Made by a program: the position numbers and the translations under genes. A stretch of 32,000 nt of DNA from Fibrobacter succinogenes subsp. succinogenes S85 (GTDB taxonomy: Bacteria > Fibrobacterota > Fibrobacteria > Fibrobacterales > Fibrobacteraceae): contig NC_017448.1 of NCBI RefSeq assembly GCF_000146505.1, forward strand, positions 1,410,001-1,442,000, given 5' to 3'. Below the pieces are notes generated by a model. That model saw only the letters and a program-made list of their open reading frames with translations. It made no database searches and was not told the origin of the DNA. Below are positions 6,866-32,000 of the stretch, in pieces. Position 1 is the stretch's first letter; each line of letters opens with the position of its first letter.

Positions 6866-6978
6866 GTATGCTACCTCTGATATGATTGTTTTGTTATTGC
6901 GAGCGTAAATTTAGAATTTTTTTCATATTTTTCCAACAACTTTTTTTAAGAACCCCTTTAAAAAGCGCAATATTTTTG

Positions 6979-6984
6979 TATAAT
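6979..6984 (+). promoter_or_regulatory. candidate -10 box (TATAAT) for tRNA-Gly
   Basis: A perfect TATAAT lies 12 nt upstream of the mature tRNA 5' end. I see no convincing -35, and Fibrobacter promoter rules are poorly known. Confidence 0.3.
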
Positions 6985-6995
6985 TGTCCATGCTC

Positions 6996-7067
6996 GCGGC
7001 GGTAGCTCAATGGTAGAGCCTTAGCCTTCCAAGCTAATGGTTGCCGGTTCGATCCCGGTCCGCCGCT
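6996..7067 (+). tRNA. tRNA-Gly (anticodon UCC)
   Basis: Hand-folded cloverleaf. Acceptor stem GCGGCGG/CCGCCGC; D arm GCTC-AATGGTA-GAGC; anticodon arm TTAGC-CTTCCAA-GCTAA with anticodon TCC at 7028-7030; variable loop TGGTT; T arm GCCGG-TTCGATC-CCGGT; discriminator T. No CCA is encoded. Confidence 0.92.
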
Positions 7068-7070
7068 CTT

Positions 7071-7099
7071 AGACCTCTTTTTCGAGAGGTCTTTTTTTA
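7071..7099 (+). terminator. rho-independent terminator after tRNA-Gly
   Basis: 8-bp perfect stem agacctct/agaggtct, loop ttttcg, then T7. Confidence 0.8.
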
Positions 7100-7136
7100 T
7101 TCAACGGGATGCCGGGGTTGCCATACACGCGGACTT

Positions 7137-9822: not shown

Positions 9823-10983
9823 ATGTTTTTTGAACAAGCAATAGCCCATAACCTCCCGAATTATACGAAGGAATCGGATTCCGCCTACGGCGAGACCCTC
9901 GCTCCGCTCGATTACAAGGACGAACTTAAGGTCAAGAACGAAGCCATCCGCGAATTTTGGGAAGTCAACCGCCTTGCACGCGGTCCGCAGCCGATTGTGG
10001 CAAGCCCCATGCCGCGCAATTACCGCACGACGTCCAAGCGCCAAGTCGAAATGAAGCCGGGCGACCTCCGCTTTAACGAATACGACAGCATCTTGGAGCC
10101 CGAAGAACACAACGCCATTTACCGTCTGCTGTTCGACAAGCTCATCACGCCGGCATACAAGCCGCTCGCTTACGCGCTCAACTGGCTCATCATCCGCGGC
10201 ACGTACAAGTACCGCATCGTGATTTTCAACGTGAAAAAGCTGGACGCAAGTATCGTGCGCAAGCTCAAGCAGATTTCCGAAGTCTTGCAGCAGAGCCCGT
10301 ACCACGTGACCGCAGCACATGCCTACGTGGACCCGACTGGTTCCAACTACTATCTCGAAGCAAAGCGCCCGACAGACACGCTCAACTTCAAGCAGCTTTA
10401 CGGCCCGCGCGAACTATCGCTCGACCTCGGCCATTTCAGGCTCAAATACCCGGTGACGGGCTTCAGCCAGATTAACGAAAGCCAAATTCACAACCTCATC
10501 AAGTCCGCAAGCCGCTTGCTCGGTCTCGAAAAGGGCGACCATTTCTTGGATCTTTACTGCGGTTACGGTCTCTTCAGCTTTGCTCTCGGTGAAGCCGCCA
10601 AGTCCGTGCTCGGTGTGGAATGGGAAGGTCCGTCCATCGACTGTGCGAAGGCTTCTGCAAGATTCTTGAAGAAAAACTACAAGTTCATCGCAGGCAAGAT
10701 TGACGAGACGTTTGTGCAAATGAGACTTCCGCGGCCGATCCCTGGCGAACCGGAACGCATTTTGTTGGACCCGCCGCGCAAGGGAACTGAACCGGGCGTC
10801 ATCCGGGCTCTCGCGATGCGCAAGCCCGTTCGCGTACTTCACATTTTCTGCGGCACCGATGAAATCCCAGCAGCTCTCGCCGAATGGGAACGCTACGGCT
10901 ACCGCGTCAAGGAAGTGTTGCCGATGGACTTGTTTCCCGGCACGCCGCACCTCGAAACGCTTGTCGCACTTGAGAAAAAGTAA
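9823..10983 (+). CDS. class I SAM-dependent RNA (uracil-5)-methyltransferase-like protein (TrmA/RlmD family)
   Basis: SAM motif I FLDLYCGYGLFS and motif IV ILLDPPRKG. I prefer ATG 9823 (AAGAGGA 4 nt upstream) to the TTG at 9799. Confidence 0.78.
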   Translation: MFFEQAIAHNLPNYTKESDSAYGETLAPLDYKDELKVKNEAIREFWEVNRLARGPQPIVASPMPRNYRTTSKRQVEMKPGDLRFNEYDSILEPEEHNAIYRLLFDKLITPAYKPLAYALNWLIIRGTYKYRIVIFNVKKLDASIVRKLKQISEVLQQSPYHVTAAHAYVDPTGSNYYLEAKRPTDTLNFKQLYGPRELSLDLGHFRLKYPVTGFSQINESQIHNLIKSASRLLGLEKGDHFLDLYCGYGLFSFALGEAAKSVLGVEWEGPSIDCAKASARFLKKNYKFIAGKIDETFVQMRLPRPIPGEPERILLDPPRKGTEPGVIRALAMRKPVRVLHIFCGTDEIPAALAEWERYGYRVKEVLPMDLFPGTPHLETLVALEKK

Positions 10984-10996
10984 TAGGTACCGCGTC

Positions 10997-13738: not shown

Positions 13739-13765
13739 ACCCTCAATATACTATTTTTTGCTTAC

Positions 13766-14956
13766 ATGGTAACAAAATCCAACACGCCCGACAATACACT
13801 TTGGACCCGCACGTTCATTACCGTCGCTGCGGCGAACTTTTTGCTGTTCTTTAGCTTTTACCAGCTATTGCCGATTTTGCCGTTGTACATCATCGACAAA
13901 TTCCAGACAGACAACGCAACCGCAGGGTTCATCATTTCGCTCTACACGATTGGAGCGCTTGCCTGCAGGCCTTTTGCGGGGTTCCTCGTCGATACGTTCA
14001 GCCGAAAGCCGCTATACTTTTGGACATTTTTCGCATTTACACTCTGCTTTTTAGGCTACAAGACAGTCGGGCTGTTGCCGATTCTAGCGGTCGTGCGTTT
14101 TGCACACGGGCTGTTCTTTGGCATTTCGAGTACCGCAAGTAATACGGTGGCTATTGATGCACTGCCCGCAAGTCGCCGAGGCGAAGGCATCGGGTATTTC
14201 GGGATTAGCGTGAACTTAGCCTTCGCCACCGGTCCCATGACCGGAATGTTTCTTTACGAAGCATTCGGCGACGGGATTGTTTTTGCAATTTCTACAATCC
14301 TTTGCGTGATTGGACTTGTGCTTGTGCAGACGCTCAAGGTAAAGCCCCGCGAAAAGAAGGTCTGCGCCCCGCTTTCGCTCGACCGATTCTTCCTCACTCG
14401 CGCCGTTCCGCAATTTGCAAACTTCATCTTCGTCGGATTTGCGTACGGCCCGGTCACAAACTATATCGCCATTTACGCAAACGAACTTGGCATCGGTGGC
14501 ACAGGATGGTTCTACGCGCTCATCGCTTCGGGCCTCATCTTGAACCGCATCATGACAGGCCGCCTGATTGACCGCGGTTACCTGATTCATCTTGTGGGTT
14601 CCGGCATGACTTTGATCGTCGTCGCTTACTTCATCCTCGCCTTTAGCCACAGCCCCATTACATTCTTCTTATCCGCATTCCTTATCGGAACAAGCCTCGG
14701 GCTTATCTTCCCTGGCTACCAGACCATGTGCGTGAACCTCGCTCGCCACGACCAACGCGGAACAGCAAACAGTACATACCTAAGCGGCTGGGACATCGGC
14801 ATTGGAGCCGGAATTCTCGTAGGAGGCGCCATGGCAAACCACTTCGGGATGCACCAGCAAGTGTTCTTCGTCTGCGGCATAGCACTCGCCATCGCCGACA
14901 TCATGTTCCTCGCCTACACATCAAGGCATTACTTGAAAAACAAGCTTGAGGGATAA
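13766..14956 (+). CDS. MFS transporter
   Basis: 396 aa with about 12 hydrophobic segments and the MFS loop motif GFLVDTFSRKP (G-x-x-x-D-x-x-x-R-K) between TM2 and TM3. Confidence 0.85.
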   Translation: MVTKSNTPDNTLWTRTFITVAAANFLLFFSFYQLLPILPLYIIDKFQTDNATAGFIISLYTIGALACRPFAGFLVDTFSRKPLYFWTFFAFTLCFLGYKTVGLLPILAVVRFAHGLFFGISSTASNTVAIDALPASRRGEGIGYFGISVNLAFATGPMTGMFLYEAFGDGIVFAISTILCVIGLVLVQTLKVKPREKKVCAPLSLDRFFLTRAVPQFANFIFVGFAYGPVTNYIAIYANELGIGGTGWFYALIASGLILNRIMTGRLIDRGYLIHLVGSGMTLIVVAYFILAFSHSPITFFLSAFLIGTSLGLIFPGYQTMCVNLARHDQRGTANSTYLSGWDIGIGAGILVGGAMANHFGMHQQVFFVCGIALAIADIMFLAYTSRHYLKNKLEG

Positions 14957-14958
14957 GA

Positions 14959-15426
14959 CTACGCCAAGCGCTTGTCTTCGTACATTCTCTTGTCGGCGTT
15001 GATCATGCTTTCCTTGAAGCTTTCGGGATTTCCATCCCAGCGGGCAAAGCCCATGCTCGCCTCAATCTTATAGGAGCGTGACACGCTCTTCGCGACTTCT
15101 TCTTGCAAGCAATTGCGGACTTCCTTAACCACATCGTCCGGGACTTCAGTCTGCGCAATCATCAAAAACTCGTCGCCACCGTAACGGCAGAGGAACATCG
15201 AAGACCCCAAGCGTTCACAAGCCTTCTTGAGCGCCTGCGAAACGATAATGAGCGCACGGTCTCCTTCGGCATGGCCGTAAGTATCGTTAATTTGCTTAAA
15301 GTGGTCCACGTCCACCATAATCACAAAAGAATCTTTTTCTTCGCGCGGCTGATGCAAATAGTCATGCAGACGGTTACGGTTATTGAGCATCGTCAATGAA
15401 TCCGTCGAAATCAACTGGTTTTGCAT
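14959..15426 (-). CDS. GGDEF (diguanylate cyclase) domain, C-terminal fragment of a split gene
   Basis: DSLTMLNNRNRL...VDVDHFKQINDTYGH..GD...RYGGDEFLM has an intact GGDEF active site. It is in the same frame as 15430-16089 and separated from it only by TAG-CAT. Confidence 0.8.
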   Translation of the reverse strand: MQNQLISTDSLTMLNNRNRLHDYLHQPREEKDSFVIMVDVDHFKQINDTYGHAEGDRALIIVSQALKKACERLGSSMFLCRYGGDEFLMIAQTEVPDDVVKEVRNCLQEEVAKSVSRSYKIEASMGFARWDGNPESFKESMINADKRMYEDKRLA

Positions 15427-15429
15427 ATG

Positions 15430-16089
15430 CTAATACGCAAACAAAATAATAGCGGTACACCAGAAGCAGAAAATTGGAGTCGTCAATGCAAAGAGAATCT
15501 GCGCACCGCCCGCCACCAACACACCCGGCGTATAGCTAGCCACAATCAGATACGTTCCAAGATTAGCCCTATTCAGCATGGTTCGCGTACGGAGCAATCC
15601 GCGAACTGTTCCCGCCATCCAATAAATTAACGGCAAGAATGCTAAGATGAAATAATAAAAGCCAATGGGTTCTAGCCGGTCATCAAGCCAAAAGTCGGGA
15701 GCAATCCAAAAAGAAATGAGCAACGCCACAAACTGCACGATAATCGGGATGCGTAATTTAAATTGAAGCGTTTCAATCTGCTTACGAGTCATTTCCGGGC
15801 GTGTACTGATTTCAGCAAACATAAAACAGTTATACGCGACAACCGGCATAATAATGGCATTGAAATAATTCACCGCCAAAACAGTAAACGTATTTTTCGG
15901 GAAAGTCGCATCGTTCACAAGCGCCCAAACAGAGTCACTTATGAAATAGACAATATGCCAAAGCACAAGCGTCTGGAAAAGTTCATACTTGACCTGCGGA
16001 GTCGGGAGTCTCTTGATACTGTACAAAAGCAGCAGCAGTATCACGATGCATCCCGCATTGACTTCGACATAAAATCCAAAAACGCTCAT
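15430..16089 (-). CDS. polytopic membrane sensor-like domain, N-terminal fragment of the split diguanylate cyclase
   Basis: 219 aa with about 6-7 TM helices. It ends ...IILFAY-TAG immediately before the GGDEF linker. Confidence 0.7.
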   Translation of the reverse strand: MSVFGFYVEVNAGCIVILLLLLYSIKRLPTPQVKYELFQTLVLWHIVYFISDSVWALVNDATFPKNTFTVLAVNYFNAIIMPVVAYNCFMFAEISTRPEMTRKQIETLQFKLRIPIIVQFVALLISFWIAPDFWLDDRLEPIGFYYFILAFLPLIYWMAGTVRGLLRTRTMLNRANLGTYLIVASYTPGVLVAGGAQILFALTTPIFCFWCTAIILFAY

Positions 16090-16223
16090 AGTTACAAAAA
16101 TACTCTATTTCTATTACATTAGGACAAAAATCCCTGTTTATTCTCAAAAAATAATCTCCATCACAAAGCGTATCCGAAAGGCACAAACGTTGCATATATA
16201 ATACAGGTACATAAATTTTCAAT

Positions 16224-16240
16224 CAAAAACGCCGTTTTTG
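16224..16240. promoter_or_regulatory. perfect 8-1-8 palindrome upstream of the second TIGR02147-like gene
   Basis: caaaaacg-c-cgtttttg lies ~70 bp upstream of ATG 16311. It could be an operator; function unknown. Confidence 0.25.
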
Positions 16241-16310
16241 CTCATTTTTGCAAATTTCCGTTTTATAGAAACATTGCTTTTCCGTAAAATTCAATTTATA
16301 TTTAGGAGTG

Positions 16311-17141
16311 ATGAAAGCGATTATCGAATACTCCAACTTCCGACAGTACATGCGCGACTTTTACGAAGAGCGTAAGCTCCGCCATGTTTTCTCGTGGCGA
16401 GAATTTTCCAAGGCCGCAGGCTTTACCTCATCTTCGTACATGAAGGTCGTCTGTGACGGGAAAAGCAATTTGAGCCGTATCGGTGTCGAACGCACCGGGC
16501 AAGCCATGGGACTTGTCGGATTCGAAATGGACTACTTCAGGGCGATGGTCAACTTCGGCCAAGAAACAGACGAAGCAAAAAAGAAGGCTGCCTACGAAGA
16601 AATGCTCGAAATTGCGAGAGTCCACAAAGTCAGAGTTGTCGAAGGCGACCTGTTTGAATTTTACGAAAGCTGGCGAAACCCAGTCTTACGAGAACTCGCC
16701 CCGCTCATGCCAGGCGCCACTCCGGGTGAACTCGCCAAGATGTGCTACACGGACGTTTCCGCCGCAGACATCAAGCAGTCCCTTGATTTTTTGGTCAAGG
16801 CAGGGTTCCTCAAAAAAGAGGGAGAAAACACATACTCCCAGACAGAAACATCCATCAAGGGCTCCCCCGAAGCAACCAAGCTCGCCATCCGCGACATGCA
16901 CCGCGAAATGGCCAAAATTGCAGCAAATTCGCTGGATCTCGCCCGTACCGAGCGCAACTTTACCGGCGTCACCATGGGCATTTCCAAGGACTCTTACGAA
17001 CAAATCGTCAAGGAGCTTGACGAATGCCGCCGCAAAATCGTGAGCATTGCCGCAGGCGACAAAAACATCGATCAAGTTTATAGATTAAATTTACAGTTAT
17101 TCCCTCTCACAAGAAAGGCGAAGGAGAATGGCAATGACTAA
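16311..17141 (+). CDS. TIGR02147-like (DUF4423-type) HTH-like protein, paralogue 2
   Basis: MKAIIEYSNF... aligns end to end with 521-1354 (shared FSWREF, RELAPLMPGA, VYRLNLQLFPL). I took the ATG at 16311 rather than the GTG at 16308. Confidence 0.82.
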   Translation: MKAIIEYSNFRQYMRDFYEERKLRHVFSWREFSKAAGFTSSSYMKVVCDGKSNLSRIGVERTGQAMGLVGFEMDYFRAMVNFGQETDEAKKKAAYEEMLEIARVHKVRVVEGDLFEFYESWRNPVLRELAPLMPGATPGELAKMCYTDVSAADIKQSLDFLVKAGFLKKEGENTYSQTETSIKGSPEATKLAIRDMHREMAKIAANSLDLARTERNFTGVTMGISKDSYEQIVKELDECRRKIVSIAAGDKNIDQVYRLNLQLFPLTRKAKENGND

Positions 17142-18123
17142 GTTGTTCAATAAATTCTTGACTATATGCGTCGCGGCATTCTCCGCATTTAGCCTCTCGG
17201 CCTGTTCTGACAAAATAGCAGGAACTGCCGAAGAACCAAACCAGTTCGCCTATGGGACGCAGTCTAGCAGTTCCATAGACCGCTCCATCGTATCGGATTC
17301 CGGCAAATCTCTAGAAACACCAAACGATTTTCCTATTATCACAAGCAGCGCCACATCAGTCCCGTCACCAACCACAAATAATTCATCGTCGTCCCAATCG
17401 GAATACGACGGTTTTGTGCCAATCACGATAGACCCGACTCCATCCTTACCCGATTCCGTTCCCGGAAATAGCGGAGCCGGCAGCAGTGGCGGCGCACCTA
17501 GTTTCGGCAACCCCGATTGTCATTGCCAAGGCGACGCAAAATGCTATTGCGGTTCAGACGGTGCGTCTGCATACACACTTGATGATTATCTCAAAAATTA
17601 CAATATCACCGATGTCTCTTACGACGACAACGTCCTTGCCTTTAACAAGACTTACGATGGTCAGCTCGAAGACGTCTACAACTCTGCGAAAGTAAATACA
17701 TCACAGCTGAGATCCATCGGCCTGCATAAGATTACCAGTGAAAACGCCAGCGCATTAAGCATACTGTTTTTAAGGACTACAATGAACATGGGCGGAATGC
17801 TCTACGAAAAAGACGGAGTCGTTTCTAGAACGCAAGGCGGTTGCCAACTTTACGTGCTGAACGTCTATGACACATCGCCCGTCATCCACGTGCTTACCGA
17901 GATTTCAAAGGATACTATCAAAATCACAGACGTCCATGACAACTGCGATTACGAGCCGCGCCCATTCGATATGCATGTCGGATTCCTGTTCGAATACTGC
18001 GGCGAGCTTTCTGAAAGTCCCAAAATTGACATAACATTCAAGCTCAACGAATCCATGAAGTGCGGTACAGTCGACTACGACGAGTACATCAGTAAAAAAC
18101 TCAGGGACTCCTCCGGCCAGTAA
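17134..18123 (+). CDS. lipoprotein (Ser/Pro-rich linker + Cys-rich C-terminal domain)
   Basis: MTKLFNKFLTICVAAFSAFSLSAC/SDKIAGTAEEPN. AAGGAGA lies 7 nt upstream of ATG 17134. There is an 8-nt overlap with the upstream stop (17139-17141). Confidence 0.7.
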   Translation: MTKLFNKFLTICVAAFSAFSLSACSDKIAGTAEEPNQFAYGTQSSSSIDRSIVSDSGKSLETPNDFPIITSSATSVPSPTTNNSSSSQSEYDGFVPITIDPTPSLPDSVPGNSGAGSSGGAPSFGNPDCHCQGDAKCYCGSDGASAYTLDDYLKNYNITDVSYDDNVLAFNKTYDGQLEDVYNSAKVNTSQLRSIGLHKITSENASALSILFLRTTMNMGGMLYEKDGVVSRTQGGCQLYVLNVYDTSPVIHVLTEISKDTIKITDVHDNCDYEPRPFDMHVGFLFEYCGELSESPKIDITFKLNESMKCGTVDYDEYISKKLRDSSGQ

Positions 18124-18316
18124 AAGGCAACCTCACATTTGCGCCACATTGGGATACGGCAATATTTGTCGCATCCCAAATCTATATTGTAGCCATAAAA
18201 AAATTACGGTCAAAAAAAACACCTCATTTCGTTTTACAGATTCAATAGAGAAAACGATATATAATTGCGGTTTTAGGTGTTTGCTATGAGAAAATTTGCC
18301 GTTTAAAGGAGGTTTT

Positions 18317-20650
18317 ATGAGAGAAAATTACTTCGGTCGCGTATTAAATTCCCTGAATACAGAATGCACCCGCAAAAATTATGAGCTCGATTTCGTAACG
18401 CTCAAGAGCTACGAATACTGGATTCGCATGATGCGGATTTGCAAAAGCTATCCCGATGCCGACGACTGCATTGCAATCATCTCCAAAGAACGCGCCTCCC
18501 GCGTGCTGAAAGACCTCTCGGAACATTTCGAAAAGCTCAACGCCGAAGAAGACCGCCTCCCGCTTCATGCAAAAAAGCGCTTTATCAAGGAATCGAACGG
18601 GAATTATGCCGGCAAGAGGCTCCGCTGCAACGAAGAGAGCGAAGAAATGAGCGTTGCCTACCAGCGCCGCCAAATGGCTGTCGTGCGTTTCAACGACGTC
18701 ATTGACCGTTCCTGCTCTGTCCGCGAAATTACGGATTTCGTGCGCAATTACCTGTGCGGTGAAGGCATTTTTGACCAGCAGTCGCAAAAGGTTTTCTACG
18801 ATAGCATTGTCCGTGAACTGCTCGGTTTTCTGGAAGAGAACAGAGACGTGCATGACGCCTATTACAAACGCCTTGAAATCGTGCAGAAATCGTTCAACCT
18901 GACCGATGACGAAATGGAAATCATGATGTTCTCGTGGATTTTCTTCAACAAGGAACAGTGCAGTTCGCTTTTGGAAATGATCGGTTCCCGCAGATTCAGA
19001 GGGGCCGTGCTTCCGGATATTTTTCCGCAGCTTTATCCGGACGTTGATTTCGAAAACGCCGTTTCGAACAAGGGGACGCTCAAACAGATGGGCATCCTTG
19101 ACGAAGACCTCGACATTTCCAAGCGCATCGGGATGTTCCTGGACGGTCATTCCGGCAACGATCTGGACAGCCTCTATTTTAGAGTCTATGAAGGTGACTC
19201 CGTTCCGTTCAAGAAGCTCTGCAACAACAACCCGAAAGTGGAATTGGCGTTCAACATGATCAAGCACGCCAAAGTTGGCGAAGGCTTGAACCTTTTCTTC
19301 TACGGTGTTGAAGGTACCGGCAAAACCGAACTCGCCAAAGCGATTGCAAAAAAGCTCAACCGCCCGCTCGTGCTCACAAACATCAGCATTGTCGGCGAAC
19401 ACCGCGAAAGCAAGGAAAACTCAGTCGTTCGCAGCCGCATGGGGAGCATCCTTTATGCCGCCACAAAGTTCCAGAAAAAGAAGGCGATTCTCCTCGTCGA
19501 CGAATCCGACGTCATTCTCAACTGTTGCGAAAAAGGAAGTCTCAACTTCTTCCTTGAACAGATCAAGGTTCCCGTCATCTGGATTTCGAATACCACGCGC
19601 TGGATTGAAAACAGCACGCTCCGCCGTTTCAATTACTCCATCCATTTCGACCGCCCCGATGCCGAAAAGCGTTTGCAAGTCTGGGAATCCGTTGTCAGCG
19701 AACATAGCGCATCGTCCATTATCCCGCAAGAAGTCGTGAAGCGATTCTCCGAAGAATTGCAAATTACCGCAGGCGGCATCACGCAAGCTATCGTCGGCGC
19801 CAAAAAGCTCGTGGAGTCCGGTTGCAAAATTGACCCCATCAAGGCCATCCGCACCATCGCCGAAGCGCAATCGGAACTTTTGGACTTGGACATGGTTTAT
19901 GCCAACCGCGACAAGGAAAGCCGTTCGCCCACGTACCTGCTTGACGCGCTGAACATCGATGCCGACATGAAAAACGTACTGAAAGTCATGAGCGCATTTG
20001 ACGAAAAGTGGAAACAGATGCAAGACGGCGACCGCCCGGATAGCCTCAACATGCTCCTCTACGGCGCCCCCGGCACCGGCAAGACGGAATTCGCCAAGCA
20101 CATTGCACGCACGCTCGGCCGCAAGCTCATCATCAAGCGCACAAGCGACTTGCTGAATAGCTACGTCGGTGAAACCGAAAAGGCCATCCGCAAGATGTTC
20201 AAGGAAGCCGAAGAAGCCAAGGCAATCCTCTTCCTTGATGAAGCCGACAGTTTGATCCGTGACCGCAACGGAGCCTCGCACAACTGGGAAGTAACCCAGG
20301 TGAACGAAATGCTCACGCAGATGGAAAACTTCAAGGGCATCTTCATTGCAGCCACCAACTTCGAAGGCGAACTCGACACAGCATCGCGCAGACGCTTTGC
20401 GCTCAAAGTCAAATTCGGTTACCTCAAGCCGGAAGGCATTGAATCGCTGTGGCACGGATTCTTCCCGAACGTGCAAATGCCCGAAGCCGTGAAGAACCTC
20501 CGCATGCTCACCCCGGGCGACTTCAACGCTGTCTACAGCACGCTCCGATTCTACGACGCAAGCGAGCTCACCGCCGACCGCATCATGAACGCGCTCAAGT
20601 CCGAAATCGCCTACAAGGACAGCCGCGAAGGAAGAACCATGGGACTGTAG
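18317..20650 (+). CDS. double AAA+ ATPase with a ~330-aa N-terminal domain of unknown function
   Basis: AAA-1 has Walker A GVEGTGKT and Walker B ILLVDESD. AAA-2 has Walker A GAPGTGKT, Walker B ILFLDEADSL, sensor-1 AATNF and an Arg finger in SRRRF (classic-clade, SpoVK/Vps4/CDC48-like). ATG 18317 has AAAGGAGG 4 nt upstream. Confidence 0.85.
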   Translation: MRENYFGRVLNSLNTECTRKNYELDFVTLKSYEYWIRMMRICKSYPDADDCIAIISKERASRVLKDLSEHFEKLNAEEDRLPLHAKKRFIKESNGNYAGKRLRCNEESEEMSVAYQRRQMAVVRFNDVIDRSCSVREITDFVRNYLCGEGIFDQQSQKVFYDSIVRELLGFLEENRDVHDAYYKRLEIVQKSFNLTDDEMEIMMFSWIFFNKEQCSSLLEMIGSRRFRGAVLPDIFPQLYPDVDFENAVSNKGTLKQMGILDEDLDISKRIGMFLDGHSGNDLDSLYFRVYEGDSVPFKKLCNNNPKVELAFNMIKHAKVGEGLNLFFYGVEGTGKTELAKAIAKKLNRPLVLTNISIVGEHRESKENSVVRSRMGSILYAATKFQKKKAILLVDESDVILNCCEKGSLNFFLEQIKVPVIWISNTTRWIENSTLRRFNYSIHFDRPDAEKRLQVWESVVSEHSASSIIPQEVVKRFSEELQITAGGITQAIVGAKKLVESGCKIDPIKAIRTIAEAQSELLDLDMVYANRDKESRSPTYLLDALNIDADMKNVLKVMSAFDEKWKQMQDGDRPDSLNMLLYGAPGTGKTEFAKHIARTLGRKLIIKRTSDLLNSYVGETEKAIRKMFKEAEEAKAILFLDEADSLIRDRNGASHNWEVTQVNEMLTQMENFKGIFIAATNFEGELDTASRRRFALKVKFGYLKPEGIESLWHGFFPNVQMPEAVKNLRMLTPGDFNAVYSTLRFYDASELTADRIMNALKSEIAYKDSREGRTMGL

Positions 20651-25069: not shown

Positions 25070-26176
25070 ATGGCAATTTTTGAAACGCTTTTTATCTTGA
25101 CCGGACTTCTCATGGGCTATGTGTCACGGGGCGGAATGTACCTATTCTTGCTTCCGCTTGCCGTAGTGGCGTTCGTGCTCGCCATTATGAACAGGCCGAG
25201 CCCAACGGGTTCCAGGACAAAAAAAATCGTAAGCTCAATTTTATCGGCAGCTTACCTTGTCACGGTATTTGTCGGCTCACTTACTGCCATATCCCCCAAA
25301 AAGGAACCGACAGTTGCATTTCAGGCTCAGGATTGCAAGGACTTGTCCGGCATGGCAGATCTGGAGCGCGTCAAGGCGGAGATCGCCTTACATGACGACG
25401 AATTAATTGAGTGCGACCCTACAAAAGAGAAGGGCTGCATGGAATTCACCAATTATGGGACAAGAAGCGACAGCAACAGGTTTTACACGGTTTCCTTGCA
25501 CTGGAAATTGCCGAGATTCCAGGTTTATCCTAAAGGGATCCACCGGAAAATCATCAAGGGGCTGTTGGGTGAGGACTTGACCGATGCCGACACGATCCTT
25601 GATTCTGAACATCTAGGAGAAATTCATAAAAAAGCCGTTTACCATCAGGCGGAAAATTACAAGAGAAGCATTGAGTTCGAACTCAGGAATTATCCCAATG
25701 ACTGGTACTTTGACAGCGCCCATACAGAAGTCGCCGCCACCCTCCATTACGAACGCCAGGACAGTATAGATGTTGCGATTGATTCACTGCTGTGGACGAC
25801 TTATTATATTTCAAATGCTGGGTACAATGCCGGTGCCGCCGGAGGTTACTTTTACGAGTATCATCGGACCTTCTCAAAGAAAGACGGGTCGTTGGTTGAT
25901 TCCACTATTTTCAATCCAAATGAAAAGAAGTCAATTGTATCGCTTCTTCGCAAATATGCGGAAAAATACGATGCCAGGGCTGATGCCATCGGCATGAATT
26001 TCCAGCTGGAGCCCTCTTTTTTGAAGGACGGTATCGGTTTTGACGGTTTGTCTTTCGACATCGGCTGGCATACCCACGGTAGTGTGATGATTGTGGTGCC
26101 TTACAAGGAAATTCTACCCTATATGGAAACTTGGGCTCGCCAAAAATTCGGTTTTACAGAAGGTGGAGATCCATAA
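25070..26176 (+). CDS. membrane protein, ~3 N-terminal TM helices + ~290-aa extracytoplasmic domain
   Basis: Hydrophobic N-terminus and AAGGAAA RBS. The extracytoplasmic part has only a faint resemblance to DUF3298/RsiV-type domains (..NAGAAGGYFYEYHRTFSKKDGSLVD..), which I do not consider established. Confidence 0.6.
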   Translation: MAIFETLFILTGLLMGYVSRGGMYLFLLPLAVVAFVLAIMNRPSPTGSRTKKIVSSILSAAYLVTVFVGSLTAISPKKEPTVAFQAQDCKDLSGMADLERVKAEIALHDDELIECDPTKEKGCMEFTNYGTRSDSNRFYTVSLHWKLPRFQVYPKGIHRKIIKGLLGEDLTDADTILDSEHLGEIHKKAVYHQAENYKRSIEFELRNYPNDWYFDSAHTEVAATLHYERQDSIDVAIDSLLWTTYYISNAGYNAGAAGGYFYEYHRTFSKKDGSLVDSTIFNPNEKKSIVSLLRKYAEKYDARADAIGMNFQLEPSFLKDGIGFDGLSFDIGWHTHGSVMIVVPYKEILPYMETWARQKFGFTEGGDP

Positions 26177-26284: not shown

Positions 26285-28969
26285 TTACACCTCTTCAATG
26301 CTTGCGTGATATTCCTGAAGAGATTTAACAGCGCCGTGTCCGTTCCTTGCAGCGGCAATACCCTTCACGGTGTTGTAGGCACCGGCGAGGGTTGTGATGT
26401 ACGGAACCTTGTACTTGATGGCGGCCTTACGGATAGCGCTTTCGTCCTTGATGGCGTCGCGCTTTGCCCACGGCGTGTTGATGATGAGGTTCACCTGCTT
26501 GTTCAGGATGATATCGAGAACGTTCGGGCGGCCTTCAGCAATCTTGTTCACCACTTCGCACTTGACACCGGCGGCTTCGTAGAACTTGGCGGTACCTTCG
26601 GTAGCGTAAATCTTGAAGCCGAGCTTCTGGAATTCCTTACCGATTTCAATCGCCTGTTCGGAGAGGTTCACCTTGTCAGAAAGGCTGATGAGCACAGCGC
26701 CTTCGGACGGGAGGAAGGAACCTGCAGCTTCCTGGCTCTTGTAGTAAGCGAGGGCGTAGTCGTCGGAAAGGCCGAGGACTTCACCAGTGGAGCGCATTTC
26801 GGGGCCGAGAACCGGGTCCACCTTCGGGAACTTGTCGAACGGGAACACAGCTTCCTTGGCACCGTGGTGGTTGAACTTCTTGTCCTTGAGCTTGAGGTCT
26901 TCGAGCTTGGCACCGAGCATCAAGCGGGTCGCGAGGCGAGCCATCTGCGTGTTACAGACCTTGGAGACCAGAGGCACCGTGCGGGAGGCACGCGGGTTGG
27001 CTTCGAGGACGAACACCTTGCCGTCTTCGATAGCGTACTGCATGTTCATGAGGCCGCAAACGTGGAGGGCTTCTGCAATCTTGCGCGTGTAATCCTTGAT
27101 GGTTGCGAGGTTTTCCTTCGTGATGGTCACCGGCGGGATAATGCAAGCGGAGTCACCGGAGTGGACACCGGCAAGTTCGACGTGTTCCATCACGGACGGG
27201 ATGTAAACGTGTTCGCCGTCGGAGAGGGCGTCGGCTTCGCATTCCAAAGCGTTGTGGAGGAAGCGGTCGATGAGGAGCGGACGATCCGGAGTCACGCCCA
27301 CGGCCTTCGCCACGTATTCGCGGAGCATGTTTTCATCGTAAATGACTTCCATGCCGCGGCCGCCAAGCACGAAGCTCGGGCGGATCATCACCGGGTAGCC
27401 GCCAATCTGCTTGACGCAAGCGAGGGCTTCGTCGATGTTCGTGGCCATGCCGCTTTCCGGCATCGGGATGCCGAGCTGGTCCATCATCTTGCGGAACAGG
27501 TCGCGGTCTTCGGCGATGTCGATGGAGTCGATGCTCGTGCCGAGAATCTTCACGCCTTCGTCGGAGAGCGCGCGGGCAATGTTCAGCGGAGTCTGGCCAC
27601 CGAACTGCACGATGACGCCAGCCGGCTTTTCCTTATGATAAATCTGGAGAACGTCTTCGAGGCTGACCGGTTCGAAGTACAGCTTGTCGGAAGTATCGTA
27701 GTCGGTAGAAACCGTTTCGGGGTTGCAGTTCACCATGATGGTTTCGTAACCCATTTCGCGGAGAGCCATGGCAGCGTGGCAGCAGCAGTAGTCGAATTCG
27801 ATACCCTGACCGATTCTGTTCGGGCCACCGCCGAGGATCATGATCTTCTTCGGGTTGTTGGAAGCGGTAGATTCGTCCTTGCAGTTGTAGGTGCTGTAGT
27901 AGTAGTACTGGTCCTTCACACCGCTCACCGGCACTGCGCACCAGCCTTCGACCACGCCGAGTTCCGTACGCTTCTTGCGCACGTCCTTTTCGCGGATGCC
28001 GAGGATCTTGGCGATGTACTTGTCGCTGAAGCCGTCCTTCTTGGCCTTGATGAGGAGTTCATCGGCCGGGAGACGGCCCGGAGTCTTGAGCATTTCTTCT
28101 TCGAGTTCCACGAGTTCGCGCATCTGCTGCACGAAGTAGGCCTTTTCGTAGGTGGCGGCGAAGATTTCTTCGTCGGTTGCGCCCTTACGGATAGCTTCGT
28201 ACATCTGGAAGTGGCGTTCGGAAGAAGCGGTCTTCATCATTTCAAGGAGTTCTTCCTTGCTCTTCTTGTTGAAGTCCTTCGCAAAGCCGAGGCCGGAACG
28301 ACCGTTTTCGAGGCCGCGAATAGCCTTCTGGAGGGTTTCCTTGTAGGTCTTGCCAATAGCCATGACTTCGCCCACAGCCTTCATCTGGGTGCCGAGGCAG
28401 TCATCGACGCCGCGGAACTTTTCGAATGCCCAGCGGGCGAACTTGAGCACCACGTAGTCACCGCTCGGGGTGTACTTTTCGAGGCTTCCATCGCGCCAGT
28501 ACGGAATCTGGTCGAGGGTAAGGCCTGCGGCGAGCTTTGCAGAAATGAGGGCGATCGGGAAGCCGGTAGCCTTGGAAGCAAGGGCGGAGGAGCGGCTGGT
28601 ACGCGGGTTGATTTCGATAATCACCACGCGGCCGGTCTTCGGGTCATGAGCGAACTGCACGTTGGTACCGCCAATCACGCCGATGGATTCCACAATCTTG
28701 AAGGCCTTTTCCTTCAGTTCTTTTTCGAGCTTCTTGTCGATGGTGAGGAACGGGGCTGCGCAGAAGGAGTCGCCGGTATGCACGCCCACCGGGTCGATGT
28801 TTTCGATGAAGCAGATGGCGATCATCTGGTTCTTGGAGTCACGCACGACTTCGACTTCGAGTTCTTCCCAACCGAGGATGGATTCTTCGATGAGGCACTG
28901 GTGCGTCATCGAGAGTTCAAGACCGTTACTGCAAATGGTGCGGAGTTCTTCCACGTTGTAGCAGAAGAT
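26285..28969 (-). CDS. carB: carbamoyl-phosphate synthase large subunit, 5'-truncated (lacks ~180 N-terminal codons)
   Basis: It is collinear with CarB from the ...YN-x-EE-L/F...GL-x-LS region to the C-terminal MGS-like domain (IENIDPVGVHTGDS, NPRTSRSSALASKATG, GGGPNRIGQGIEFDYCC, NPRASRTVP). The in-frame sequence upstream reads TAA-IFCYN-VEELRT. The stop at 28970-28972 ends the homology, and no frame further upstream resembles the CarB N-terminus. Confidence 0.88.
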   Translation of the reverse strand: MFCYNVEELRTICSNGLELSMTHQCLIEESILGWEELEVEVVRDSKNQMIAICFIENIDPVGVHTGDSFCAAPFLTIDKKLEKELKEKAFKIVESIGVIGGTNVQFAHDPKTGRVVIIEINPRTSRSSALASKATGFPIALISAKLAAGLTLDQIPYWRDGSLEKYTPSGDYVVLKFARWAFEKFRGVDDCLGTQMKAVGEVMAIGKTYKETLQKAIRGLENGRSGLGFAKDFNKKSKEELLEMMKTASSERHFQMYEAIRKGATDEEIFAATYEKAYFVQQMRELVELEEEMLKTPGRLPADELLIKAKKDGFSDKYIAKILGIREKDVRKKRTELGVVEGWCAVPVSGVKDQYYYYSTYNCKDESTASNNPKKIMILGGGPNRIGQGIEFDYCCCHAAMALREMGYETIMVNCNPETVSTDYDTSDKLYFEPVSLEDVLQIYHKEKPAGVIVQFGGQTPLNIARALSDEGVKILGTSIDSIDIAEDRDLFRKMMDQLGIPMPESGMATNIDEALACVKQIGGYPVMIRPSFVLGGRGMEVIYDENMLREYVAKAVGVTPDRPLLIDRFLHNALECEADALSDGEHVYIPSVMEHVELAGVHSGDSACIIPPVTITKENLATIKDYTRKIAEALHVCGLMNMQYAIEDGKVFVLEANPRASRTVPLVSKVCNTQMARLATRLMLGAKLEDLKLKDKKFNHHGAKEAVFPFDKFPKVDPVLGPEMRSTGEVLGLSDDYALAYYKSQEAAGSFLPSEGAVLISLSDKVNLSEQAIEIGKEFQKLGFKIYATEGTAKFYEAAGVKCEVVNKIAEGRPNVLDIILNKQVNLIINTPWAKRDAIKDESAIRKAAIKYKVPYITTLAGAYNTVKGIAAARNGHGAVKSLQEYHASIEEV

Positions 28970-28972
28970 TTA

Positions 28973-29105
28973 TTCGGGCGTTCCCCACTGGCGTGGGTCG
29001 GGCTATATTTTAGGGGCAGTTGCCGTCGCTTCGCTCGTCACCCGCCTCCTAAAACGGCACCACAGTGCCGCCCCAAGGGGTCACTATCCCTAACGCATTT
29101 TCAAC
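28973..29105. other. GC-rich hairpin-rich element of unknown nature at the carB/island junction
   Basis: Local stems are cccac-tggc-gtggg, ttttagggg...cctcctaaaa (9 bp enclosing ~30 nt) and cggcac-caca-gtgccg. No coding frame is open. The composition is unlike the AT-rich DNA that follows. Confidence 0.4.
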
Positions 29106-29125
29106 CACCTTAACTCGAATAGTTA

Positions 29126-29134
29126 TGATATAAT
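29126..29134 (+). promoter_or_regulatory. extended -10 box (TGATATAAT) upstream of the DprA-like gene
   Basis: A TGnTATAAT match lies ~145 nt upstream of ATG 29278; putative only. Confidence 0.3.
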
Positions 29135-29277
29135 GGAATTCATCAGAAGACAAACGATGAAGTTTTTTTTGCAATATCTGCGCCATAGTCTTTTTCTTTT
29201 TTTCTTACGATTTTTGTACGAAAAAAGATATATTTGTTTTTAGAAACCATAAGCCACATTTGCAACGGATTTTTTAC

Positions 29278-30126
29278 ATGAACACAAAAGAATACAAAGA
29301 ACTTTTGGCTTATGAATTTTTATGGAGCAAAGAGAATTCCACATTAAAAAAAATGTCTCTAACCCTCAACAACGGTTCACTTCTAGCTTCTGAAAAACTA
29401 AAAGAGGAAATGTTTTTTGATGATGCCGAATTATATGAAATTGATAATGCATTGAAAGAACGATCTAAAGCATTCTCCGTTCTCTTCAAAAACGATGAAC
29501 GTTTTCCTAAAGGTTTACTTAATGTCAAATACCCCTTAGGAATGTTCTATTACAAAGGAAACCTCGATCTCTTAAAAAATGTATGTGTATCAGTAGTCGG
29601 ATCAAGGCACGTGAGTCCTAAAGGAAAAATTAGAACCGAAAAACTTATTAAAGAACTTCATTCAAATACCACCATTGTTTCAGGTTTAGCAAAAGGTGTA
29701 GATACCGCGGCCTTAACTACAGCAATCAGCCTTGGGAAAAAAGTTATAGGAGTTATTGGAACCCCTATTGACCATTATTATCCAAAAGAGAATAAAGAAC
29801 TCCAAGATGAAATTGCAACCAATCATCTGCTCATCAGCCAAGTTCCCCTTTACAAATACGACAAGCAATCTTTTGTGACAAAAAAAATGTATTTCCCAGA
29901 ACGTAATGTTGTTATGGCTGCAATCTCAGATGCAACTATAATTGTAGAAGCGTCGGAAACAAGCGGAACACATTCCCAAGCGAAAGCCTGTTTTGACTTG
30001 GGAAAAAAATTGTTCATCCTCAATTCATGTTTTGAAAACCATGAAATTACTTGGCCAACAAAGTATCTAGAAAAAGGTGCAGTAAGGGTAAGGGCTATAA
30101 CTGATATAAAAATTCTTAAGGACTAG
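29278..30126 (+). CDS. DprA/Smf-like (SLOG/Rossmann-fold) protein
   Basis: VSVVGSRHVSPKG, VSGLAKGVDTAA, GTPIDHYYPKEN, FPERNVVMAAIS and VEASETSGTHSQA reproduce the DprA DNA_processg_A motif series. I took ATG 29278 rather than the TTG at 29260. Confidence 0.83.
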   Translation: MNTKEYKELLAYEFLWSKENSTLKKMSLTLNNGSLLASEKLKEEMFFDDAELYEIDNALKERSKAFSVLFKNDERFPKGLLNVKYPLGMFYYKGNLDLLKNVCVSVVGSRHVSPKGKIRTEKLIKELHSNTTIVSGLAKGVDTAALTTAISLGKKVIGVIGTPIDHYYPKENKELQDEIATNHLLISQVPLYKYDKQSFVTKKMYFPERNVVMAAISDATIIVEASETSGTHSQAKACFDLGKKLFILNSCFENHEITWPTKYLEKGAVRVRAITDIKILKD

Positions 30127-30132
30127 GGGGTT

Positions 30133-30756
30133 ATGCATATGGCGTGGGAAAAATTAAGCGGGACTTCAGTCGGTTTAGAAGATACAGATGAGATTTGGAG
30201 ATACGAAATATATTGCCCTGAAGAACGGGACGATTATTTCAGCGATTTACACAATTTAAAAAAATCTACCGATAAAAAAGAAAAATATGAGTGGCGCTAT
30301 AAAACAGAAGCAATTGCTAAATGTAGTGGATTCTTAAAAGAATTCCGATTTCAAGCGGAAAACCCTTTTATTATTCCGATGCCCCCGTCAAAGAAAAAAG
30401 GAACCCCAGAATATGACAATCGATTAGTGCAGATAATCAAAAAAGTGACAAATGTAACTTGTCTAGATATTTTTGATGTAAAGGAGAGCGTCGAAAGCAC
30501 TCACAAGCCAGAACAAACTAAAGATCTAATCGCAATACAGAACAATCTTGTGATGTCAACAACTGAAAAAATAGAAATACTGGATTTAGTGTATGTGCTA
30601 GATGATGTACTTACAACAGGAACTCATTTTAAAGCTATAAAAAATAAAATTTTGGAAATAAACCCGGACATCCGTGTTATTGGGTTATTTTTTTACAAAC
30701 CCGAAGGTCCCCTAGACTACTATAAATACCTTCGAGAAAACAATAAGAACGGGTAA
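30133..30756 (+). CDS. phosphoribosyltransferase (PRTase)-fold protein
   Basis: The PRPP-binding loop VYVLDDVLTTGTHF is near the C-terminus. The gene starts 6 nt after the DprA-like stop (alternative ATG at 30139). There is no ComFC-type CxxC zinc finger in the N-terminal half. Confidence 0.78.
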   Translation: MHMAWEKLSGTSVGLEDTDEIWRYEIYCPEERDDYFSDLHNLKKSTDKKEKYEWRYKTEAIAKCSGFLKEFRFQAENPFIIPMPPSKKKGTPEYDNRLVQIIKKVTNVTCLDIFDVKESVESTHKPEQTKDLIAIQNNLVMSTTEKIEILDLVYVLDDVLTTGTHFKAIKNKILEINPDIRVIGLFFYKPEGPLDYYKYLRENNKNG

Positions 30757-30912
30757 AGAAAGGCTGGTTTCATTACTGCACTGAAAGTGCAAGGATTTAA
30801 CCATTTATTGGACAATAAACTTATTTTTTTAGATTTTTGGCATTACCTTTCTGATCATTTCTTTTATAATATTTATCAATTTATTTATAGCATTTTCAAT
30901 TTCTTTATAGGA

Positions 30913-31506
30913 TTATTCTTTCGGGATTGGCATTGTAAGAACGGAGACTTCTATTCGATTCTTGTTAGAAAAAACGTTCACTCCCAAAACGATAATTTTT
31001 TCTTCAGTAATAAACAAACGTTCATCCGAAAAGAAAACAGGAATTTTTTCATTATGCCATTTTTTTCCACGATCTATACTGAAATACAAATAATGAAGTA
31101 ACGTAGAACCAGTCATTTGGAAATCGAAAATACCTACAATCAAACTATCCTTAACAAAAAAATCAGATGGTTTCATATATCTAGAGCGCCATAAGTGCCA
31201 CTTATTCGGAATAGAACAATATTTTTCATACTCATCTCCTGATTTATACAAAATTCGAACCTCATGCGTTGAAGTAGTTGTTTCATCATAACCGCAAACA
31301 ATCCAATTCCTATTATTTTGAGCATATCTTCTTTTAGGCCCACAAAGTCCACCAAAGTCTTCTGACGGAACGCTTTCTTTTTTTATTTGTCCTTTATTTT
31401 TCAAGTATTCTTTTCCTATTAAATAATCGGGAATGTACGAATCACTCTTCATATTAATATTAGTATATGTCATGTTCCATGTTTTGCCACCATCTTCAGT
31501 CCACAA
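30913..31506 (-). CDS. BNR/Asp-box repeat protein, C-terminal part of a frameshifted gene
   Basis: Asp-box motifs are TEDGGKTW and SIDRGKKW. There is no ATG start (the track uses TTG). The frame stays open upstream to 31539 and would join 31509-31823 after +1 nt in the A8 run. Confidence 0.6.
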   Translation of the reverse strand: MWTEDGGKTWNMTYTNINMKSDSYIPDYLIGKEYLKNKGQIKKESVPSEDFGGLCGPKRRYAQNNRNWIVCGYDETTTSTHEVRILYKSGDEYEKYCSIPNKWHLWRSRYMKPSDFFVKDSLIVGIFDFQMTGSTLLHYLYFSIDRGKKWHNEKIPVFFSDERLFITEEKIIVLGVNVFSNKNRIEVSVLTMPIPKE

Positions 31507-31508
31507 TG

Positions 31509-31802
31509 CTACAGGATCACCTTTTTTTTCAAGCTAGATTTTAAACTGGTAAATATAGCGAATGAACTTTCATTTTCTATTACAACTTTTCCAATATTTT
31601 CAAACACCCCACTAAAAACAAAGTCTTTTTTTTCAAAGGAACTCGAAAAACCTTCAGAAATCCATTCATCATCAAATTCTCCAAGTTTAAGCAAGCCCCA
31701 TAAAAGCAATGGACTAAAAAAAACTATAACAATAGGAATAAAACAACCGATTGTATAAAAAACACCAAATTTAGTAAATACAATTTTAAACAACTTATGC
31801 AT
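31509..31802 (-). CDS. membrane-anchored N-terminal part of the same split gene
   Basis: MHKLFKIVFTKFGVFYTIGCFIPIVIVFFSPLLLWGLL is a signal anchor. It ends ...SLKKKVIL* just after the A8 tract (T8 on the plus strand, 31522-31529). Confidence 0.5.
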   Translation of the reverse strand: MHKLFKIVFTKFGVFYTIGCFIPIVIVFFSPLLLWGLLKLGEFDDEWISEGFSSSFEKKDFVFSGVFENIGKVVIENESSFAIFTSLKSSLKKKVIL

Positions 31803-31838
31803 ATTAATTTCTGACACAAACAAAGTCTCAGCAAAAAA

Positions 31839-32000
31839 TCATCTCCCAAACATCCTTAATTGTGTTTTCACCTGCCGCGAAATAGCATCTTGTAAGAAAT
31901 TATCATACATTCCTTTAATCTCCCTCGCATAAGAATCAACATAACATTCCTTAATTACTGATAGAGCCTGCTCTCTGCCTTCCCAAAGGTCAGGTTTATC
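31839..32000 (-). CDS. hypothetical protein, C-terminal 53 codons (N-terminus beyond the window end)
   Basis: The minus-strand frame is open from 32000 to TGA at 31839-31841 (..DKPDLWEGREQALSVIKECYVDSYAREIKGMYDNFLQDAISRQVKTQLRMFGR*). I recognise no domain. Confidence 0.35.
   Translation of the reverse strand, partial: DKPDLWEGREQALSVIKECYVDSYAREIKGMYDNFLQDAISRQVKTQLRMFGR

Follow-up and report, generated by a model that had tools for sequence, protein, structure and literature searches.

A candidate short-subtype ShosTA toxin-antitoxin cassette in Fibrobacter succinogenes S85

The chromosome of Fibrobacter succinogenes subsp. succinogenes S85 carries two adjacent genes encoding a DprA-like protein and a putative phosphoribosyltransferase (PRTase), which we describe here as a candidate toxin-antitoxin cassette of the ShosTA family. 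The genes, designated shosA and shosT, lie near the right end of the window, the whole 32,000-nucleotide stretch that was analysed (contig NC_017448.1, positions 1,410,001 to 1,442,000 of the forward strand). The window corresponds to approximately 983-1004 kb of CP001792.1, except for one homopolymer base. The features of the cassette, in window coordinates, are:

29110..32000, no strand: block of low guanine-cytosine (GC) content, 0.29-0.38, delimited from the GC profile and extending to about 32.3 kb, beyond the window
29225..29277, forward strand: conserved leader that precedes shosA and forms the left boundary of the mobile cassette, delimited by DNA identity to the nearest relatives
29278..30126, forward strand: shosA, candidate DprA-like antitoxin of 282 residues (Fisuc_0814, WP_015731830.1), ATG start
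30133..30756, forward strand: shosT, candidate PRTase-only toxin of 207 residues, short subtype (Fisuc_0815, ACX74425.1)
30589..30630, forward strand: predicted loop binding phosphoribosyl pyrophosphate (PRPP), VYVLDDVLTTGTHF, residues 153-166 of ShosT, in which D157 and D158 correspond to D331 and D332 of Escherichia coli ShosT

The two genes are co-directional and separated by exactly 6 nucleotides. The ATG codon at position 29278 is the start of shosA in CP001792 and in the homologues. An alternative TTG start at position 29260 gives a 288-residue open reading frame (ORF; 29260..30126, forward strand), annotated as ADL26793.1. In public databases, Fisuc_0814 is labelled 'SMF family protein / DNA-processing protein DprA' and Fisuc_0815 'hypothetical protein'. 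The GC content is 0.54-0.61 across the neighbouring carB gene, drops at about 29.0-29.1 kb, and stays at 0.30-0.38 through the remainder of the window, with means of 0.352 for the pair, 0.569 for carB, and 0.474 for the entire window. An earlier note on this DNA, made from the sequence alone, had described both the abrupt switch to AT-rich composition at about 29.1 kb and the two closely spaced genes, and both descriptions proved accurate. The low-GC block is 3.2 kb long and contains shosA, shosT, a convergent gene for a 301-residue protein, and the AT-rich 3' tip of an Rhs toxin gene. The other ORFs of the window encode a malic enzyme/PTA, an M16 peptidase, a tRNA methyltransferase, a transporter of the major facilitator superfamily, an AAA ATPase, DUF285 proteins, and CarB. 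Competence genes are absent from the ORFs of the window, as the same note had remarked. By sequence criteria, shosA and shosT are genuine genes and not chance ORFs, because ShosA matches the Pfam family DNA_processg_A with an E-value of 9.6e-51, both products match the PADLOC profiles ShosA and ShosT, and the pair has thousands of homologues.

As judged from its sequence, ShosA is a DprA-fold protein that retains the arginines for binding single-stranded DNA (ssDNA). The earlier note had proposed a comparison of both proteins with defence-system profiles, and the PADLOC profile ShosA (PDLC03961) matches residues 9-282 of the 288-residue ORF to positions 12-287 of 303, with an E-value of 3.3e-78 and a score of 261 bits. 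The Pfam match (PF02481) begins at residue 70 of the same ORF. The full series of DprA motifs that the note had listed is present as VVGSR, SGLAKGVD, ERN, and SGT. The protein scores 142.7 bits with the NCBIfam dprA equivalog model TIGR00732, under the cut-off of 191.15, and 100.4 bits with NF008007, for which the cut-off is 495. The best match of ShosA among PDB sequences is DprA of Streptococcus pneumoniae (3uqz, 3e-32), followed by E. coli ShosA (9vzo and 8zva, approximately 5e-16). A comparison of family profiles similarly places ShosA nearer to S. pneumoniae DprA (1.3e-43) than to E. coli ShosA (7e-28), with which it shares 29% identity over the Rossmann domain. Residues R110, R209, and K236 of ShosA align with R139, R234, and R261 of E. 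coli ShosA, and R110 and R209 are invariant within the ShosA family. In E. coli ShosA, all three arginines are needed for ssDNA binding, and R139 and R234 also for antitoxin activity (PMC11961720; PMC12961424).

The DprA domain of ShosA is preceded by an N-terminal extension. The earlier note had described it as an unrelated N-terminus of approximately 100 residues; the extension exists, but is approximately 65-70 residues long and conserved within the family. The profile match to S. pneumoniae DprA runs from residue 67 of ShosA onward, starting at DprA residue 62, and the extension occupies the position of the SAM domain in DprA and ShosA proteins. The N-terminal 65 or so residues have no sequence match to the SAM domain, and a single-sequence AlphaFold2 (AF2) model was unusable, with a predicted local distance difference test score (pLDDT) of 33.7. 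At its other end, ShosA is devoid of the C-terminal helix α14 and disordered tail of the E. coli protein, as the alignment stops at E. coli residue 271 of 327 and the S85 protein has just 36 residues beyond that point.

ShosT is predicted to have a phosphoribosyltransferase fold of the PRPP-binding type. The PADLOC profile ShosT (PDLC03962) matches residues 16-198 to profile positions 18-223 of 237, with an E-value of 3.1e-27 and a score of 94 bits. A Pfam search of ShosT gave no match, and the ComF models of Pfam and NCBIfam gave none at E<=1. The AF2 model (pLDDT 86) is composed of a single PRTase-type domain. Its best fold match in the PDB, determined using Foldseek, is ComFC of Helicobacter pylori (7p0h, E-value 7.3e-6, TM-score TMq 0.51). 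E. coli ShosT follows (8zvb, 8zvc, and 8zvd; E-values 2-7e-4, TMq 0.39-0.46), and then ordinary purine PRTases.

Three regions of the ShosT family that would contact PRPP are conserved: a P-x-P-P-S-K...D-x-R loop, a flexible loop with an invariant histidine, and a DDV-TTG loop. The invariant residues are P82, P84, S86, D95, and R97 in the first region, H124 in the second, which is modelled with low confidence, and D157, D158, and T161 in the third. In 94 family members, D157, D158, and T161 never vary, and V159, T162, and G163 hardly do. The earlier note had seen the PRPP loop and had pointed out that the protein lacks the Cys4 zinc finger of ComFC. Both observations are borne out, since the only cysteines of ShosT are the scattered C28, C64, and C110, and none of them form a CxxC pair. 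The family of short ShosT proteins comprises 669 clusters at 50% identity and E<=1e-30, and approximately 1500 at E<=1e-10; its 150 best-scoring members are mostly 200-230 residues long.

The two genes travel together. Linkage was counted in the ShosT-profile loci from IMG/VR and the JGI metagenomes that had enough upstream sequence (n=72), and in 69 of these 72 the ShosT homologue is immediately preceded, on the same strand, by a DprA-like gene. Burkholderia phage Mana, which is P2-like, has the same gene order between its integrase and cos region, and so do an E. coli plasmid, a Sulfurimonas genome, where the pair is beside two integrases, and a locus with transposases and genes for a PLD-family nuclease and an Endonuclease_NS protein. 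The nearest relatives of the S85 pair, with ShosA proteins 88-92% and ShosT proteins 63-66% identical, occupy three unrelated contexts. Some adjoin a DpnII restriction-modification system and others SecA-like and giant genes, and none adjoin carB. The pair is therefore not syntenic among its closest relatives, which answers in part the question of conserved synteny that the earlier note had raised.

The edges of the cassette were located by aligning the DNA to three of these relatives (loci L124, L118, and L121) in bins of 100 columns. Identity, at first 37-49%, climbs to 78-85% in the bin that begins at position 29225; in the bin that begins at 30718 it is back at 43-45%. The DNA homologous to the nearest relatives thus spans only about 29225-30760, from approximately 50 bp before the start of shosA to the stop codon of shosT. 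Since the homology ends at the gene borders and the relatives are located in other contexts, the mobile unit is a two-gene cassette of 1.5 kb. The conserved leader at 29225..29277 probably carries the promoter. A promoter and terminator scan of positions 28900-31000 found nothing exceeding the shuffled expectation, and Rfam and tRNA scans detected no integration-site RNA at the island edge. In one Lachnoclostridium metagenome-assembled genome (locus L010, 5914-6546), the ShosT homologue has an in-frame stop within an invariant N-x-K-K motif, and the upstream ShosA is intact. This copy has the appearance of a toxin gene that was inactivated, which would be expected if its product is toxic.

The toxin evolves faster than the antitoxin. 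Among close relatives, the ratio of nonsynonymous to synonymous substitution rates is 0.20-0.30 for ShosT and 0.07-0.11 for ShosA, two to four times as high for the toxin. A pair of near-identical strains (L118 positions 1647-2243 versus L121 positions 6529-7125) differs by 12 nucleotides in shosT, all of them nonsynonymous and 10 of them in codons 4-89, and by 4 nucleotides in shosA. At distant loci, ShosT proteins share a median identity of 31% and ShosA proteins one of 43%. Variation within the 90% clusters of S85-like strains contains no clear excess in ShosT over ShosA, so that the signal of diversifying selection comes from the more distant comparisons only, in a small sample. Fast evolution of the toxin is in line with a type IV system, in which co-evolution of the partners is not required, and may result from selection on the N-terminal region of ShosT.

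The original paper on shosTA is reportedly that of Kimelman 2012. Rousset's 'DprA + PRTase' system (E. coli APEC O1, construct pFR105) and Millman's ShosTA system (E. coli KTE181) are one and the same, and this E. coli system was crystallised by Pu et al. 2025 (PMC11961720) and Yang et al. 2026 (PMC12961424). It is very likely that the S85 pair is a member of the ShosTA family. The family is one that defence-annotation resources already recognise, as seen from the PADLOC matches of both proteins and from a pair in Fibrobacter sp. UWCM that is 98-99% identical to that of S85. Table S10 of Millman et al. 2022 includes one ShosTA entry for the UWCM genome, which is very probably this pair.

The S85 pair and the long ShosTA system of E. 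coli (Rst_DprA-PRTase; APEC O1 and KTE181; PDB 8zva-8zvd and 9vzo) are both two-gene operons in which the antitoxin gene precedes the toxin gene. They share a DprA-fold antitoxin with ssDNA-binding arginines, a PRTase-fold toxin with a DD-TTG PRPP loop, and carriage on mobile elements, and one PADLOC system name covers both subtypes. The E. coli toxin, however, has 424 residues, with a HAD/pyrophosphatase (PPase) domain (residues 1-164) fused N-terminally to the PRTase, whereas the 207-residue toxin of S85 consists of the PRTase only, and the two toxins have no detectable sequence similarity outside the PRPP loop. Similarly, the E. coli antitoxin has 327-331 residues and ends in helix α14 and the disordered tail, both of which the 282-residue S85 antitoxin lacks (PMC11961720; PMC12961424 for the E. 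coli proteins). The closest counterpart is the short ShosTA of PADLOC-DB v2 (PDLC03961 and PDLC03962; UWCM, Burkholderia phage Mana, and E. coli plasmid CP010208), which has the same families, gene order, and sizes. Nothing essential distinguishes the S85 copy from it, apart from its position between a truncated carB and an Rhs C-terminal toxin (Rhs-CT)/immunity cassette. The PsyrTA/RqlHI system also combines a DprA-like antitoxin with a PRTase-containing toxin, but the match of the S85 antitoxin to PsyrA (1.9e-22) is partial and far weaker than that to the ShosA profile, and the S85 toxin has no PsyrT match.

We therefore propose, with a probability of roughly 0.7, that the pair is a short-subtype ShosTA system: a horizontally acquired, two-gene toxin-antitoxin cassette of the abortive-infection type. 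The earlier note had suggested a defence module of the 'DprA-PRTase' type. The PADLOC matches, the sub-equivalog dprA score, and the AT-rich mobile cassette agree with the general suggestion, but the subtype is the short one and not the long one studied by Rousset.

The note had also called the mechanism of the system unknown, which has been outdated by the two structural and mechanistic papers, PMC11961720 (2025) and PMC12961424 (2026). According to these papers, E. coli ShosT is toxic alone, in a manner that depends on PRPP binding. The toxin disturbs the metabolism of purines and leads to duplications in the DNA, filamentous growth, and cell death, and the substitutions D331A/D332A abolish its toxicity (PMC11961720; PMC12961424). 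E. coli ShosA does not bind ShosT. Its antitoxin function needs ssDNA binding, dimerisation, and RecA binding, which makes the system type IV, and the long ShosTA is triggered by host shutoff mediated by Gp0.7 of phage T7 (PMC11961720; PMC12961424). The long subtype protects against T7 and lambda (PMC11961720). T7 escape mutations in the genes for the ssDNA-binding protein SSB and the primase-helicase, described in an earlier study as cited by PMC11961720 and PMC12961424, would implicate the handling of phage ssDNA.

By analogy with the E. coli system, we hypothesize that a PRPP-dependent activity of S85 ShosT would disturb nucleotide (purine) metabolism, and damage or stall DNA replication. 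ShosA would neutralise the toxin indirectly, as a type IV antitoxin that binds ssDNA and RecA and promotes recombinational repair. During infection, the shutoff of host expression may lead to the loss of a labile antitoxin, or a flood of phage ssDNA may titrate ShosA away from RecA. In either case, replication of the cell would stop and the phage would fail. In E. coli, the PPase domain boosts the toxin by pulling the reaction forward, and the C-terminal helix and tail are implicated in the instability of ShosA (PMC11961720; PMC12961424). Since the short form has a toxin without the PPase domain and an antitoxin without the C-terminal helix and tail, its trigger and kinetics may differ.

Three genes flank the cassette in S85:

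26285..28954, reverse strand: 5'-truncated carB, 889 residues, recognised by its similarity to E. coli CarB and bounding the low-GC block on the left (truncation observed over 26285-28972)
30913..31818, reverse strand: gene for a 301-residue protein, directly 3' of the Rhs toxin gene, split into ORFs of 197 and 104 residues in the window
31840..32000, reverse strand: 3' end of the gene for a 2237-residue SpvB/TcdB/FG-GAP/RHS polymorphic toxin, recognised by Pfam and running past the window (locus L001, 11708..18421)

The homology of the truncated gene to E. coli CarB starts from about residue 183, and a TAA stop codon is located 15 nucleotides upstream of its GTG start. The missing N-terminal part of carB was found neither in the window nor in locus L001 or the next 8.6 kb. 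The truncation junction is common to both S85 assemblies, including CP001792.1, and to a metagenome contig with 99.7% identity. The point at which carB is cut short falls at the border of the low-GC block, and a GC-rich non-coding stretch of approximately 140 bp (28973-29110) without Rfam or tRNA matches separates the truncated carB from the AT-rich block.

The Rhs toxin matches the Pfam families SpvB (5.1e-41), TcdB_toxin_midN (5.8e-24), and RHS_repeat. The core of its gene has a GC content of 0.59-0.64, and the AT-rich tip, formed by the last 140 or so codons, of approximately 0.33. Together, the toxin gene and the gene for the 301-residue protein occupy 10781-18421 of locus L001. A near-identical wild strain (locus L002) diverges from S85 420 bp into the toxin gene's 3' end, just upstream of the AT-rich tip, and has small ORFs and an IS3 transposase there instead. 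Exchangeable Rhs C-terminal toxin/immunity cassettes usually behave in this way. The 301-residue protein is probably the immunity protein of the Rhs toxin; its search gave no family match beyond a sub-threshold one to BNR. Positions 31522-31529 hold a run of eight T residues in the window, compared to nine in CP001792.1 and several Logan contigs, and the missing base splits the gene. The difference is either an assembly error or a frameshift of the strain. The surroundings of the ShosTA pair are thus a rearranged patch that was acquired horizontally, and not a classical multi-system defence island.

Several observations weigh against a short-subtype ShosTA defence system. The pair is not surrounded by a classical defence island in S85, as its neighbours are the truncated carB and the Rhs toxin cassette, and it is devoid of the PPase domain of the toxin and ShosA's C-terminal tail. 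The fold similarity of the ShosT model to E. coli ShosT is moderate. A profile of the short ShosT family, searched against PDB sequences, finds only the generic PRPP loop of orotate and adenine phosphoribosyltransferases, at E>=0.015, and neither E. coli ShosT nor ComFC. The acceptor substrate of ShosT is not established, and no purine acceptor was found for the E. coli enzyme (PMC11961720; PMC12961424). Experiments on the short subtype were not found in the literature, as Rousset, Millman, Pu, and Yang all used the long form from the E. coli P2 hotspot, and literature searches on ShosTA with ComF and on dprA in F. succinogenes retrieved nothing useful. Some of these points would suit a plain addiction or stabilisation toxin-antitoxin system without an anti-phage role, the loss of which kills the cell and which helps to retain the neighbouring Rhs-CT/immunity cassette. 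The pair shares the 3.2-kb low-GC block with the Rhs toxin tip and the putative immunity gene, no other recognised defence system adjoins it in S85, its homologues occur on plasmids, and we found no phage test of the short subtype in the literature. We nevertheless consider this explanation unlikely, as the Rhs genes are absent beside the cassette in all other contexts examined, close relatives adjoin the DpnII restriction-modification system, other relatives are located in P2-like phages near the cos region and integrase, where Rousset found defence hotspots, and the long subtype is protective against T7 and lambda.

The resemblance of the ShosT model to ComFC allows for a different biochemistry. 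Short ShosT could be a descendant of ComFC that lost the zinc finger and owes its toxicity to binding or acting on ssDNA or replication intermediates, with PRPP or a nucleotide as a cofactor or ligand. The DprA-like antitoxin would counteract it on the same ssDNA substrate, and the module would be a domesticated ComFC-DprA competence pair. H. pylori ComFC is the top fold match, ahead of E. coli ShosT; it shares with the S85 toxin the PRTase fold and three PRPP-binding loops, including the similar sequences DDVLTTGTHF (S85 ShosT) and DDIITTGTTL (ComFC). Furthermore, ComFC binds ssDNA, in two other species it interacts with DprA, and E. coli ShosT has no purine acceptor that was found. However, the TM-score is just 0.51, ComFC is not known to be toxic, and the S85 toxin has neither a ComF sequence match in Pfam or NCBIfam at E<=1 nor the N-terminal four-cysteine zinc finger, the covering of which in a crystallisation fusion of ComFC coincided with the loss of DNA binding. 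We regard such a domesticated pair as having only a slim chance. The related idea that short ShosT is a separate, ComFC-derived PRTase lineage, and that the toxicity and neutralisation of the cassette take place on ssDNA or replication intermediates and not by poisoning of the nucleotide pool, is rather improbable. The fast-evolving N-terminal third of ShosT may be a surface that meets phage proteins. The earlier note had suggested a signalling model, in which the DprA/SLOG protein senses a nucleotide-derived molecule that the PRTase makes or destroys. DprA is a member of the SLOG superfamily, ShosA has sub-threshold matches to the ligand-binding SLOG families of Pfam cpYpsA (20.7 bits, cut-off 26.2) and LDcluster4 (17.9 bits, cut-off 26.3), and the product of ShosT is not established. 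Nevertheless, the model found no support and is very unlikely: the antitoxin function of E. coli ShosA works through ssDNA, dimerisation, and RecA, the ssDNA-binding residues are kept in S85 ShosA, and the toxin is an effector rather than a signal generator for an SLOG effector, since it kills alone, without ShosA. It is barely credible that the pair represents dprA and comFC of F. succinogenes, with a housekeeping role in competence. This explanation draws on the RefSeq names 'DNA-processing protein DprA' and 'SMF family protein', and on S. pneumoniae DprA (3uqz), which is the closest solved structure by sequence and shares its length and domain order with the S85 antitoxin. However, ShosA scores under the NCBIfam dprA equivalog cut-off, its partner lacks the zinc finger and a ComF family match, and the pair is a mobile AT-rich cassette outside a competence regulon, with a GC content of 0.35, the cassettes of its nearest relatives at different loci, homologous pairs on phages and plasmids, and no competence genes in the window.

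If the assignment to short-subtype ShosTA is correct, the S85 pair is a new example, from the Fibrobacterota, of a defence family already recognised by current tools, and ShosA and ShosT should replace the RefSeq labels 'DNA-processing protein DprA' and 'hypothetical protein'. The PRTase-only short form has a distribution at least as wide as that of the long one, with approximately 670 clusters (50% identity, E<=1e-30) distributed across phyla, phages, and plasmids. Comparing the long form with the short one could reveal which element of the ShosT mechanism is indispensable, and whether the toxin acts through PRPP and purine metabolism.

Elsewhere in the window, positions 18296-20650 of the forward strand encode a 784-residue double-AAA ATPase, the second AAA domain of which matches the PADLOC IetA models (1.4e-49). 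It was not counted as a defence system, as the match is probably that of a generic AAA domain and no IetS-like partner protease was seen. A hypothetical protein of 368 residues encoded next to carB (25070..26176, forward strand) was used as an anchor in GTDB genomes, and has homologues with 73-84% identity at 10 loci (L014-L023) in other Fibrobacter and Hallerella metagenome-assembled genomes. Since none of the 10 loci adjoins carB, the comparison is uninformative on the junction between carB and the cassette. At one of them (L018), a short carB-like fragment is located 5 kb from the homologue. The stretch between 20.6 and 26.2 kb, which has a GC content of 0.40-0.50 and encodes DUF285 repeat proteins, may also be variable.

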